A DNA stretch of 64,000 bases from an uncultured bacterium (GCA_963781925.1 CAWAHQ010000002.1:25364-89363), one strand, 5' to 3'. Counted from the stretch's first letter, positions 49,950 to 55,749 are shown. Notes: generated by a model from the sequence alone, not told the origin. Numbers and translations are program-made.

Positions 49950-51722
49950 ATGAAGCACTTACTCTTATTTTCTATAATCGTAACTACATCAGCCTTACAT
50001 GCCATGGAAGCGGATAGCACCCTTCATCTTAAGCTTCAAAGCTATAAAAAAGTAAACCTTTTGGATAGCACCAAACCGAAATCAGAAATAAATATCGATC
50101 CTATCCCCGCTGATAGTTCATCATTCCACAAGGTTCTGTTTTATGTCGTATCCCATTCATCCTTTTGCGCTTATGATCTTGAATACGCTATTTTTAAACT
50201 CAACAGGTTTATTACACCGATAAGCATTGTAGATAAGTCAGCGAATGCGTATGTTAATCATCCGAATGTTATACGTCATATCATCGGCTCTATTTCTGAC
50301 AACAGATATCAAGACATTGTCGCAAAAGCCCTTACGCTTCCAGGAGCAAAAAATTATCTTAGACAAAGTACGTGTCTCTATGCTTTTTCCGTACAATTAC
50401 AGCCTGACCAAATACGCGAATATATAACTGCTGGTGCCGATCCCCTTTATTATCCATCAACCTCAAAGGTAGGATCTTTATCCTCTACTGCTGCCGTTCA
50501 TCGCAATCGCAATCGCATAGATAAACCCAAAGACCCATCAAAAACATTAATGGAATCATTACAAGAAGAAGTAAATGATATAAGAGCTGAAGTCGACAAA
50601 GACCGCAAACTACGCCCAGCCATTATGAGTGAAAATGAAAATCATATCATAGCAACTCTTAGTCAAGAAAACATAACACCCGATGAAGCATTGGATTTTG
50701 CAATGCGAATGGATAAAGCAAAAGCAGTATCTTTGCTTCTGCAATTGGGAGCAGATCCAAGACCACACCTTCAAAAACGGATTGACAACGACGTTATTTT
50801 CAGTATGTTATACTCCGCTCTGGATTGCGCACAAGATGTTCCTACCATTGCCCATTCCGATTATGACTATGTTGCTACAAAATCGGTGGCCGCGATAAAG
50901 CCCGTACAAGAAAAGCTACAAGAAGCACTTAAGAGTGAAGATCCGCTCCGTATCATCAAAACCATTCAAGAAGAAAAAGCAACTTTATTTGAAGCACTCA
51001 GAATCGCAATTTCATTGAATCTTGAAAAGAGCGTATCAATCTTACTAACAGCAGGAGCAGACCCAAAACCACATCTTCAAAAGCAGATCAAGAATGAGGT
51101 TATTTTCAAGGCTCTCTGCTCAGCTCTTACACTTGCACAAACTAATGCTGCAACTTTACTTGATGAACATACTCCTGAACAATCTAAAAAATTACAATTA
51201 GCCCTGGCAAGTAAAAATGAAGAATATGTCCTCGATGTTCTTCAACAAGAAAATATAAACCTTGACGTAGCTTTGAAACTTGTAGCAACGTTACAAAATG
51301 AAGATGCTATGTTGCTATTGTTTAGACTAGGAGCAAGACTCCAATCTCCTCTGAAAGACCTCAAACACCTTCATGACCAAGACAGATCCGAACTTCATCC
51401 ATTAATAAAGGAGAATTTGAAAAGCGCGGTACAACATAAAAATTTGAATAAGATGAAGTGGTTGTTTAAAAATGGAGCAAACCCAAACACTCATCTATAC
51501 GATACCGTTACGATGGCCATAAGCAACATATCAGATAATATCCTGAAAGATTTACAAAAAGATTTGGATATGATTGAGCTGATGTGCAATCATGGCGCAT
51601 ATGATCAGGAAATATACGATCAGGGAATAATCGATATTGTAGAAACTATGGAAAATATGCCTGCCCGATTGTTAGCATCCCTGAAAAGAGGCCAAACATT
51701 ACACAATATGTTCCAAAAATAA
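49950..51722 (+). CDS. Large exported ankyrin-like repeat protein, first member of the array
   Basis: Leader ...TSALHA-MEA. Repeated blocks AL.FAMRMDKAKAVSLLLQLGADPRPHLQK, ALRIAISLNLEKSVSILLTAGADPKPHLQK and ALKLVATLQNEDAMLLLFRLGARLQSPLK. Confidence 0.65.
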   Translation: MKHLLLFSIIVTTSALHAMEADSTLHLKLQSYKKVNLLDSTKPKSEINIDPIPADSSSFHKVLFYVVSHSSFCAYDLEYAIFKLNRFITPISIVDKSANAYVNHPNVIRHIIGSISDNRYQDIVAKALTLPGAKNYLRQSTCLYAFSVQLQPDQIREYITAGADPLYYPSTSKVGSLSSTAAVHRNRNRIDKPKDPSKTLMESLQEEVNDIRAEVDKDRKLRPAIMSENENHIIATLSQENITPDEALDFAMRMDKAKAVSLLLQLGADPRPHLQKRIDNDVIFSMLYSALDCAQDVPTIAHSDYDYVATKSVAAIKPVQEKLQEALKSEDPLRIIKTIQEEKATLFEALRIAISLNLEKSVSILLTAGADPKPHLQKQIKNEVIFKALCSALTLAQTNAATLLDEHTPEQSKKLQLALASKNEEYVLDVLQQENINLDVALKLVATLQNEDAMLLLFRLGARLQSPLKDLKHLHDQDRSELHPLIKENLKSAVQHKNLNKMKWLFKNGANPNTHLYDTVTMAISNISDNILKDLQKDLDMIELMCNHGAYDQEIYDQGIIDIVETMENMPARLLASLKRGQTLHNMFQK

Positions 51723-51753
51723 TGATTTTTACTACTAAGTACCAACTACCATC

Positions 51754-52563
51754 ATGAAAAATTCCATAACTATCTTTCTGCTCATTATTTCATTTTCTCA
51801 TGAAACATATTCTATGAAGCGCCATCGCACGAGTAACTGGCATACGCGCAAAAAAATCACTCCACTAAAAATGATAAAACCATCTGGGTCTATTGCTCAA
51901 CTGGAACAACCAGTTCTTCCTCTAGAAATCATAAAAAAGATATGTATTGATTTATTCAGGCGCTATCAGAACGTTCTCACTATGGAGACTAATATTAGAA
52001 AAATAGGTTCAATTAACAAACAATTACGCACGTTCATATGCCAACCTCGCACTATTTGCACCATTATTAATAATGTAGGAGGGTCTCCTTTTTTTGATTT
52101 TAAAGCATCTTTAGCAAATCAAATCAAAATCAAACCCATACAAAATTACTTACTACAATCGACATTATTGAACCTGAATATAATATCGCTTAATAGTGAT
52201 CAAATTAAAAAATCTATCATCAATGGTGCAGATGTTAATTATTGCAATTCCTTTATTAAAACAGGAACAATATGTAAACCTATTTTACTAAAAACCAAAA
52301 CCGATCACCGTAAAACACAATTGCTCCTGGAATTCGGAGCAGATCCGCATCTTACCGATAAACCTGATCAATCTTCAGCCTTTGGACAAGCCATTAGAAA
52401 GAAAAAATCTGAATTATTAAAGCTTTATATTAGCTACTGCCCTCAATACTGTAAGGATTACTTAGAAATTATATTAGCAACAGCAAATTCCACTATTATA
52501 CGCCTTATTCTACAACAAAAAAATATTCCTGAAATTCATCAAACCCGGCTTGCGCAGTTCTGA
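51754..52563 (+). CDS. Exported F-box-like/ankyrin protein, type A1
   Basis: Leader ...SHETYS-MKR. LPLEIIKKICIDLF...IGSINKQLRTFICQP. INGADVNY, LLLEFGADPHL. Confidence 0.6.
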   Translation: MKNSITIFLLIISFSHETYSMKRHRTSNWHTRKKITPLKMIKPSGSIAQLEQPVLPLEIIKKICIDLFRRYQNVLTMETNIRKIGSINKQLRTFICQPRTICTIINNVGGSPFFDFKASLANQIKIKPIQNYLLQSTLLNLNIISLNSDQIKKSIINGADVNYCNSFIKTGTICKPILLKTKTDHRKTQLLLEFGADPHLTDKPDQSSAFGQAIRKKKSELLKLYISYCPQYCKDYLEIILATANSTIIRLILQQKNIPEIHQTRLAQF

Positions 52564-52631
52564 TTTCCGAACGCAAAACTATGAGATAAAATAAGGAATT
52601 GCTCAACTCACTTAAACTTAACCAAAACACC

Positions 52632-54431: not shown

Positions 54432-54459
54432 AAAAAATACCCTAAAATAAGGAATTACC

Positions 54460-54708
54460 ATGACACGTATTATTCGTACTATCACGCTTGGGATATTTTT
54501 GTTGCCATGCTTTCTTGTGGGATCTGAAAATGCACCAACTGAAGCACAAAAAAAACAATGGGCAGCGGATGCCGAACGATATAAGGCCACGGTAATGGCT
54601 CTGGGTGGAAAATTTGCCGATTCCGATCATGCACATGATCCGAAAAAAACAGAACCGCAACCTTCTCAATCACCCAAAAAAATTCTCAATCGACCAGCCA
54701 AACTATAG
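54460..54708 (+). CDS. Small hypothetical exported protein
   Basis: 82-aa ORF. Leader MTRIIRTITLGIFLLPCFLVGS. Charged, Pro-rich remainder. Confidence 0.4.
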   Translation: MTRIIRTITLGIFLLPCFLVGSENAPTEAQKKQWAADAERYKATVMALGGKFADSDHAHDPKKTEPQPSQSPKKILNRPAKL

Positions 54709-54816
54709 ATAATATGTGTGCCCATGGAAAAAATCATCATCGCAATTCTCTTGCCTTCAAAAGATAAAGCAGTGATGAAACTGCTACTTGCATAAAAAAA
54801 ATGAAAATACAGAGCC

Positions 54817-55749
54817 ATGAAAAAAATAATCTTCTTACTTTTATATATCGTTTATTTTCATCAGGGCAACTGCATGGAATCAGCAGTCACCGCTCCGGAC
54901 AGAATCGCTTTACCAAGGGAGACCATCCGATTTATTATATTCCACTATTTCGATAGGGCCCACACCTATTTTCAACAAGAACCCGAAACCAAAAAAATAA
55001 CAAAAAATGCGTATATTCAAAATATATGCTGTGTCAGCCAATCTTTTTATCAACAGGTAAATCAAAAAGAGATCATCAATAAATTAATAAAATTCATACC
55101 TTCAAAATGCGATTTTCCCTCGCAAACAGACATGTGGGGAATTATACTTTGTAGAAAGAAAAGCACCGAATTAAGGGATTTTGTAGATAAAATAACCGAA
55201 CATTCATTTCAAAGAAAAACCGAACCTAGCGAACAAATGGTTTTTACGATTAAAAAAGCTATTGAAAAACGGATAGATGAAGGTGCCGATATCGATGGTC
55301 GCCTTTTTCCTTTTCAAAAAAAAGAATCTTGTTCACCATATCCCAATGAAACATGTCTTTATTTAGCCGTACAACGTGATTGTTCCGAATATACTAAAAT
55401 ATTATTAGATTTGGGTGCAAATCCAGATTTTACCAAATCTGAATACACGCCTCTGCAAAAAGCTGTGCACAACAAAAATATTCCCATGATGCAACTTTTA
55501 TTTGATTTTGGTGCATGCAATAGATGTTTAGTGGAAGCTGTTAAAATTAAATATGTTCCGGCAATAGAATTAATCATCAGCAAAGAAGATATTTCTGAAA
55601 CTGAATTGTATCAAGCCTTGGCAACTGCGAGCCAAGCCAGCGATAATATGCCAATTATTGCTTTGTTGAAGACAGTGAAAAGAAAAGAAAATCCAAAAAC
55701 ATTCATCAGACGAAATGGTAGAATTTTCAGTTCGAGTGATAGCCTTTAG
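54817..55749 (+). CDS. Exported F-box-like/ankyrin protein, type B2
   Basis: Leader ...HQGNC-MES. LPRETIRFIIFHYF...ICCVSQSFY. LLDLGANPDF, MQLLFDFGA. Confidence 0.6.
   Translation: MKKIIFLLLYIVYFHQGNCMESAVTAPDRIALPRETIRFIIFHYFDRAHTYFQQEPETKKITKNAYIQNICCVSQSFYQQVNQKEIINKLIKFIPSKCDFPSQTDMWGIILCRKKSTELRDFVDKITEHSFQRKTEPSEQMVFTIKKAIEKRIDEGADIDGRLFPFQKKESCSPYPNETCLYLAVQRDCSEYTKILLDLGANPDFTKSEYTPLQKAVHNKNIPMMQLLFDFGACNRCLVEAVKIKYVPAIELIISKEDISETELYQALATASQASDNMPIIALLKTVKRKENPKTFIRRNGRIFSSSDSL

Follow-up and report, generated by a model that had tools for sequence, protein, structure and literature searches.

An array of leader-bearing ankyrin paralogs with a family-specific N-terminal module at a conserved hot-spot of a Dependentiae bacterium

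Gene content and layout of the array

In this study, an array of ankyrin paralogs was analyzed that lies at 49.9-55.8 kb, on the plus strand, of a 64-kb stretch of DNA from an uncultured bacterium (GCA_963781925.1, CAWAHQ010000002.1:25364-89363). This whole stretch is referred to below as the window, and array features are given by their plus-strand coordinates. The array comprises six co-oriented genes in the order G0-A1-B1-A2-S-B2, of which five encode ankyrin paralogs sharing an N-terminal segment, here called the N-module. A sequence-only reading of the same DNA had described a five-gene array; all five of the plus-strand open reading frames (ORFs) that it named are present from the same starts, but a sixth gene, S, situated between A2 and B2, had been missed.

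The first gene, G0 (49950..51722), encodes a protein of 590 amino acids (aa) with a leader, a partial N-module (residues 50-160 of the protein, 50097..50429, as delimited by the family alignment) and several degenerate ankyrin-like units. It is followed by A1 (51754..52563; 269 aa), in which a leader (residues 1-20) and the N-module (residues 51-156, 51904..52221; LPLEII...INKQLRTFICQP...) precede degenerate ankyrin repeats, and by B1 (52632..53504; 290 aa), with a leader at residues 1-18, the N-module at residues 28-165 (52713..53126) and ankyrin repeats. A2 (53532..54431; 299 aa) carries its leader at residues 1-23 and its N-module at residues 48-151 (53673..53984; core 45-121), followed by 4-5 ankyrin-like helix pairs. 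The last gene, B2 (54817..55749; 310 aa), combines a leader (residues 1-19), the N-module (residues 29-154, 54901..55278), ankyrin repeats and a near-invariant C-terminal tail. The small gene S (54460..54708) encodes 82 aa with a signal peptide and is kept in relatives: identity is 70% (over 74 aa) in the related locus L002 and 82% in L004, and the gene was also called in contig L001. No Pfam family, ankyrin repeat or N-module was found in S.

Upstream, the array is preceded by genes for RNase G and GatB, and gatB (48333..49832; NCBIfam GatB, E 3e-193) is the upstream anchor of the hot-spot. A terminator-like hairpin follows gatB (49839..49867; a 12-bp stem with 7 G-C pairs, then TTTTAT) and, as judged from its sequence, parts the array from the housekeeping operon. 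The downstream anchor is a capA-like gene (PGA_cap, 55874..56917), for which PF09587 was detected on the identical gene of L001 and on the L002 and L004 orthologs. Because of the terminator after gatB, the short intra-array spacers (27-108 nt) and the common orientation, the array genes probably form one or two transcripts. A tblastn search revealed no further copy of the family in the window. A mobile element or horizontal island was also considered and ruled out, since syntenic housekeeping genes flank the array in four lineages; the GC content, which dips slightly in the array (0.34-0.35 versus about 0.38), was counted against such an island too.

Leaders of the array proteins

All five paralogs begin with a basic n-region, followed by a hydrophobic core of 10-14 residues and a small residue (A, S, C or G) at position -1, and the mean Kyte-Doolittle hydrophobicity of the leaders over 10 residues is 2.5-3.5. 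The leader end appears to fit a signal peptidase I site, and by such sequence rules the proteins consist of a Sec signal peptide followed by ankyrin repeats. The leader is followed by Met at +1 in at least 90% of 41 family members, and this residue of the mature protein might act as a second, internal start site or as a signal for sorting. Given that Cys is frequent before the conserved Met, a lipoprotein was considered as well and was ruled out, as positions -3 to -1 are unlike a lipobox.

Signal-peptide-like N-termini are widespread in the window, where they are seen in about 30 of the 67 ORFs of at least 100 aa. The pattern of a hydrophobic leader, a small residue and Met-Glu/Asp/Lys also occurs beyond the array, in other ORFans of the window (29054-30079, 30098-31039, 2738-3592, 61315-62190 and 13137-13697, minus strand), which include an adjacent pair of paralogs (341 and 313 aa) and, at 186 aa, a protein with weak ankyrin similarity.

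Ankyrin repeats

The motifs on which the sequence-only reading had based its two subtypes were found in the translations: SMKR, ICQP.TI.TI.NNV, NGADVNY and LLE.GA.PHLT in the A proteins, and.HYF, IC.....SF, LL.LGA.P and LL..FGA in the B proteins, together with the LP.E... and ..NK.L segments. Its assignment of ankyrin repeats to all five proteins is upheld in part by Pfam, in which only B1 (Ank, 29.2 bits) and B2 (Ank_2, 33.9 bits) score above the cutoff, whereas G0 and A1 are sub-threshold for Ank and A2 gives no ankyrin match. For A2 the assignment is provided by an AlphaFold2 model of the mature protein (pLDDT 78, pTM 0.72), which has about five ankyrin-like helix pairs; the top Foldseek matches of this model are DARPins and gankyrin, with a probability of 1.00 and a TM-score of up to 0.74 on the target. 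As modelled, A2 is clearly an ankyrin solenoid. In the wider family, Pfam Ank was found in 29 of 41 members, and the array proteins were classed as ankyrin-repeat proteins.

Within G0, direct pairwise comparison revealed an internal repeat, residues 231-295 and 331-395 being 53% identical over 64 aa; a BLAST self-comparison of G0 did not show this repeat. The region of residues 231-395 (50640-51134, plus strand) has the form of a duplication of about 100 aa, in which each copy holds a degenerate ankyrin-like unit, LL..GADP.PHLQK.

B2 is the best-conserved member of the array, with identities among orthologs of 51-58% in the N-module, 80-81% in the ankyrin region and 93% in the tail. This tail, LLKTVKRKENPKTFIRRNGRIFSSSDSL (residues 284-310, 55666-55749), is about 93% identical in four lineages; it is basic, with a stretch KRK...RR that is like a nuclear localization signal, and its terminal S-D-S-L resembles a class I PDZ ligand.

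The N-module and its relation to the F-box

The N-module, of about 75 aa, is located between the leader and the repeats in the five paralogs (in G0 in part only). No Pfam family was found to cover it in any of the five window proteins or of 11 close relatives, and an exhaustive search of 1.84 billion representatives with a module-only hidden Markov model (HMM) returned just 46 clusters at E<=1e-3. In these clusters the module starts at about residues 25-55, after a leader wherever the called sequence has its N-terminus, and several of the family members sit in arrays on common contigs. The core of the A2 module (residues 45-121), modelled alone with 44 sequences, is predicted to form five helices (9-18, 29-42, 44-50, 53-62 and 65-76; pLDDT 84.4), and the best matches of this model among the 50 listed of 54 Foldseek matches are helical repeats, namely Osh1 ANK, VHS and Cul1. 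The likeliest reading of the N-module is a helical domain, specific to the family, that would extend or cap the solenoid and provide a second interaction surface.

The sequence-only reading had likened part of this segment to an F-box. If it were right, the N-module would hold a genuine, divergent F-box, with an insertion of 9-20 residues between helices 1 and 2 and with the Trp replaced by Leu, Phe or Ala in the window clade, and the proteins would be substrate adaptors that dock to host Skp1/SCF and present ankyrin-bound host proteins to it for ubiquitination, in the way of Legionella AnkB. Most searches speak against this. Across the five window proteins and the 11 close relatives, no Pfam F-box, F-box-like or PRANC model matched at E<=10, and the curated F-box threshold (PF00646/PF12937) was not reached, the best distant member (P0058) scoring 14.8 bits versus a cutoff of 20.5. 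When an HMM of ten Pfam-validated F-boxes was applied to the 67 window ORFs of at least 100 aa, the array genes fell outside the best 15 domain matches. The module profile retrieved no F-box protein from PDB at E<=10 (its matches there, CENP-H, SPACA9 and CWC24, were dismissed as due to chance only), and the module HMM retrieved none from the 1.84 billion sequences. Foldseek comparison of the module model with PDB gave 54 matches at E<=10, none of them significant and no F-box among the 50 listed, a 45-aa motif being near the limit of this method, which was run without a positive control; the comparison with viral structures (BFVD) gave nothing significant. An approximate AnkB-like F-box query did find AnkB (5K35), Skp2, FBXW7 and GID2 in PDB.

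What stands of the F-box claim is a borderline signal from profile-profile comparison, in the right register. Using hhalign with 10-12 Pfam-validated F-boxes as targets, the 44-sequence module profile matched with a probability of 50% (P 1.6e-4, score 22.6, 36 columns), in an alignment that spans an insertion of 13 columns and pairs LP.E with LP.E and VNK.x with VCK.W. When the F-box set also included AnkB and GID2, the probability was 63% (P 7e-5, score 24.3). None of 400 column-shuffled profiles reached the score (maximum 16.9), the reversed profile scored 8.6, and in sliding windows over the family alignment the LP...VNK window alone scored (24.3), compared with 6-8.6 for ankyrin windows; moreover, the half-motifs each match their own half of the F-box. 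The collinear match of both hallmark motifs thus exceeds the shuffled, reversed and within-family controls. Three of the 41 family members, all distant and all with Trp in VSK.W, also showed a sub-threshold Pfam F-box in the same register (E 0.029-0.13; 0.029 for P0058 and 0.13 for P0042). The signal comes mainly from such distant Trp-bearing members: the hhalign probability is 72% for the distant members alone, 8.5% for family members without Trp and 2% for the window clade alone (P 0.025, LP.E helix only), and Trp is absent in all five window proteins.

Compared with the eukaryotic F-box (PF00646/PF12937), the module shows the collinear motifs LP.E(I/L)..(I/L) and (V/I).K.(W/F/L)..(L/I) and three helices in the same order, but helices 1 and 2 are set apart by the insertion of 9-20 residues, and the conserved unit runs about 30-60 residues past an F-box. 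The predicted helix break at V-N-K corresponds to the break between helices 2 and 3 of the F-box, and the lack of Trp is shared by AnkB (PDB 5K35), a proven Skp1-binder with Phe in its place (TCQFFNRLA). Ubiquitin-system effectors, including an F-box protein, are moreover encoded by Babela (PMC4378268). On the other side, the conserved unit is about 75-110 aa long rather than 45, and among B2 orthologs conservation is lower in the module than in the ankyrin region, which is the opposite of the pattern expected for a constant adaptor that binds a conserved host protein. Taken together, the family may possibly be a remote relative of the F-box, and any F-box in the window proteins themselves would be degenerate. 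That these proteins carry a genuine F-box is doubtful, and a contact of the module surface with host Skp1, as a degenerate F-box, can be proposed only tentatively.

A further explanation is that the N-module is a new host-delivery or host-targeting domain, comparable in function to the pairing of a signal peptide with RxLR or PEXEL in effectors of oomycetes and Plasmodium, or else a new, insertion-bearing F-box subclass delivered by the Sec/type II route instead of a type III or IV system. It derives from the location of the module directly behind the leader, the Met at +1, the basic MKR start and the presence of the module in divergent paralogs, and we consider it improbable. A helical domain specific to the family is the reading retained below.

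Source organism and related loci

The source organism is a Dependentiae (TM6, Babeliales) bacterium close to the metagenome-assembled genome SOIL31. A syntenic locus is present in 'candidate division TM6 bacterium SOIL31', and the GatB of the window shares 93% identity with its SOIL31 counterpart and 87% with that of locus L006. The SOIL31 locus was located in genome contigs with a profile of B2 orthologs; a genome-contig search with B2 alone found nothing, and a word-indexed homolog search returned very few relatives of the array proteins. For SOIL31, an association with ciliates has been predicted (PMC4776705).

In L002 and L004 the genes again follow the order RNase G - gatB - array - capA-like (on the gatB side, where the upstream flank is available), and gatB also precedes the arrays in L002 and L006. 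Four related genomes have the same hot-spot, each with a different set of family genes. The order is gatB-G0-A1-B1-A2-S-B2-capA in the window, gatB-S-A2like-A'-B2-capA in SOIL31, A2like-G0-S-A'-B2-capA in L004, and gatB, three family genes and a photolyase gene in L006. Identity to orthologs is 46-47% for A2 (L002 and L004), about 70% for B2 (three other lineages) and 71% for G0 (L004), as against 93% for GatB. The flanking housekeeping genes have diverged far more slowly than the array proteins.

The three family genes of L006, a metagenomic relative at a greater distance (8001-10934; JGI 3300009093, contig Ga0105240_10000272), encode proteins of 298, 289 and 360 aa and lie directly after gatB, with photolyase replacing capA; two of the three have Trp in VN(K/R)SW. 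Over 12.3 kb, the Logan contig L001 (ERR10755945) differs from the window at a single place, a change from A6 to A5 at 53056-53061, which frameshifts B1 in L001 (3821-4692) into fragments of 159 and 108 aa. This difference may stem from an assembly error, or it may reflect a true polymorphism or the pseudogenisation of B1.

Paralogy and the origin of the A-B-A-B order

The paralogy of the array genes is, judging from pairwise BLASTP comparison, far beyond chance. A1 and A2 share 37% identity over 253 aa (E 3e-35) and B1 and B2 29% over 294 aa (E 2e-32), and pairs of A with B proteins reach only E 1e-9 to 1e-3. The sequence-only reading had placed the common N-module in G0 too, and this applies to its second part only: residues 83-178 of G0 match A1 81-174 and A2 79-159 (E about 1e-8), but LP.E is not conserved in G0.

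The two subtypes were also recovered in a bootstrap neighbour-joining (NJ) tree, in which B1 is sister to all B2 orthologs (100%), A1 pairs with P0003, its 61% identical ortholog (100%), and A1 joins the A2 group (itself 83%) at 69%. A third subtype, A', is present in relatives and has no member in the window. On the basis of this tree, the A1/A2 and B1/B2 splits are older than the divergence from SOIL31 and L004. The NJ distance between B1 and B2 is 1.43, compared with 0.36 to B2 orthologs (about 4x), and that between A1 and A2 is 1.08, compared with about 0.7 for A2 orthologs (about 1.6x). B1, the most divergent member, lacks an ortholog in the related loci.

An exact 14-mer, TAAAATAAGGAATT, occurs just twice in the window, at 52587..52600, 24 nt past the A1 stop codon, and at 54443..54456, 12 nt past the A2 stop codon, where it holds the AAGGA ribosome-binding site of S. 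A similar sequence, AAAAAGGAAAT, is located upstream of S in L002 and L004. The copy after A1 may be a remnant of a lost copy of S, and the pair may serve as a further hint of a common A|S junction.

The A-B-A-B order had been attributed to the duplication of a two-gene unit. In the form compatible with the present data, a single tandem duplication of an A-(S)-B unit would have been followed by loss of S from the first copy and, in relatives, by loss of the A1-B1 copy. Both duplications being older than the split from SOIL31 and L004, the joint absence of A1 and B1 from each of these two loci, and the identical 14-mer past the A1 and A2 stop codons, which is unique to these two sites and contains the ribosome-binding region of S, agree with such an event. 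The gene orders of relatives do not, since A' is directly upstream of B2 there and S and G0 are elsewhere, and in L006 A1-like genes and a third type of member occur without a B type. The two divergences are also disproportionate, and the 14-mer, with its ribosome-binding site, may have been kept or converged by selection. As S is interposed, the gene orders of relatives differ and the B1-B2 distance is out of proportion, unit duplication is unproven; it is quite possible, if not the explanation we would choose, and the locus looks like the product of birth and death of genes.

Proposed role of the array proteins

Dependentiae are widespread and almost uncultured parasites of protists, in which more than 10% of the genes encode ankyrin proteins, none of which, to our knowledge, has been assigned a function or host target. 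The locus is probably a birth-and-death array of lineage-specific, Sec-exported ankyrin proteins, candidates for secreted factors through which an obligate intracellular parasite of protists interacts with its host. In the mechanism envisaged, signal peptidase I would remove the leader, host proteins would be bound through the ankyrin solenoid, and a further surface for interaction would come from the N-module. Exit from the cell might proceed via a type II system or vesicles, as has been proposed for the ankyrin proteins of Babela and Chromulinavorax. In the cultured Babela massiliensis, 79 of 126 ankyrin proteins have a signal peptide, and type II was the only secretion system detected (PMC4378268); in Chromulinavorax destructans a signal peptide is present in 78% of 98 ankyrin proteins, and vesicles were seen (PMC6561590).

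Several points weigh against this interpretation. Cleavage of the leaders is predicted from sequence rules, and the conserved Met behind them could be an alternative internal start that yields a non-exported form. The organism is seen through the 64-kb window alone, the type II system being attributed to it by analogy, and the borderline F-box signal means that the module may be more than a family-specific helical domain. The delivery of Dependentiae ankyrin proteins into the host is itself a hypothesis in the literature (PMC4378268, PMC6561590).

A Sec leader alone takes a protein only to the periplasm, and the array proteins might stay there or in the envelope, for instance as inhibitors or immunity partners of the cell's own secreted hydrolases, without being directed at a host. 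Export is not specific to effectors in this DNA, given the large share of window ORFs with signal-peptide-like N-termini (about 30 of 67), and an ankyrin self-protection protein of Bdellovibrio offers a likeness, with a self-protection precedent cited in PMC6561590. Nevertheless, no hydrolase or toxin gene was found within or beside the array, the basic B2 tail (KRKENPK...RR) has no obvious periplasmic role, and fast divergence and gene turnover between genomes with GatB 87-93% identical are typical of host-interaction genes. A periplasmic role is, on this evidence, decidedly improbable.

As secreted candidates, the array proteins fall into a known class, the Dependentiae ankyrin proteins with signal peptides, which earlier work regards as the chief putative secreted effectors of these bacteria; for the phylum they are ordinary. 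They share with this class the phylum itself, the succession of leader and ankyrin repeats, the many paralogs often found in arrays, and the presumed export into the protist by Sec/type II or vesicles (PMC4378268, PMC6561590). They differ from other Dependentiae ankyrin proteins in having their own five-helix module of about 75 aa, confined to 46 clusters, and in repeats so degenerate that Pfam misses A2.

The sequence-only reading had compared the proteins with Legionella pneumophila AnkB. AnkB (5K35) is likewise small, with an N-terminal LP.E helical segment that lacks Trp and stands directly before the ankyrin repeats, and Legionella and the array organism would both be intracellular parasites of protists. 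AnkB has no Sec leader; Dot/Icm translocates it, and its C-terminal CaaX motif is farnesylated. No CaaX was found in the five array proteins, which end in ...AYWPF, ...SSDSL, ...RLAQF, ...TDAQA and ...NMFQK. In addition, AnkB passes a Pfam-type F-box detection that the window proteins do not, its F-box alone aligns with the module with an hhalign score of 11 and a probability of 0.9%, and NCBIfam T4SS_AnkY gives only 15.5 bits versus a cutoff of 600. Given their Sec leaders and the lack of both a CaaX and a match to an F-box profile, the array proteins are not AnkB-type effectors. The analogy breaks down on delivery, because of the Sec-type leaders, the Dependentiae source organism and the finding of only a type II system in cultured Babela massiliensis (PMC4378268).

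A looser likeness is that to the ankyrin/PRANC proteins of poxviruses and giant viruses, likewise made by parasites of eukaryotic cells, in which ankyrin repeats are joined to an F-box-like segment that is short and degenerate. PRANC is C-terminal, whereas the module of the array proteins is N-terminal, and neither a PRANC match nor a significant match to a viral structure was obtained.

New here are a family-specific N-module, undescribed before, and a conserved hot-spot, which lets the birth and death of genes be followed between close genomes. Should the module turn out to be an F-box, the array proteins would be the first effectors of the F-box type to carry a cleavable Sec leader, and SCF would be hijacked by a bacterium without a type III or type IV secretion system; if it is not an F-box, the family still defines a new effector-associated domain.

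Genes beyond the downstream anchor

Beyond capA, where relatives have another ankyrin gene, the window holds a 240-aa ORFan without a Pfam match (57016-57738, minus strand). In L002 (12336-13271, minus strand) and L004 (5985-6893, minus strand), an unrelated ankyrin gene, encoding 311 and 302 aa, respectively, is located directly after capA on the opposite strand.

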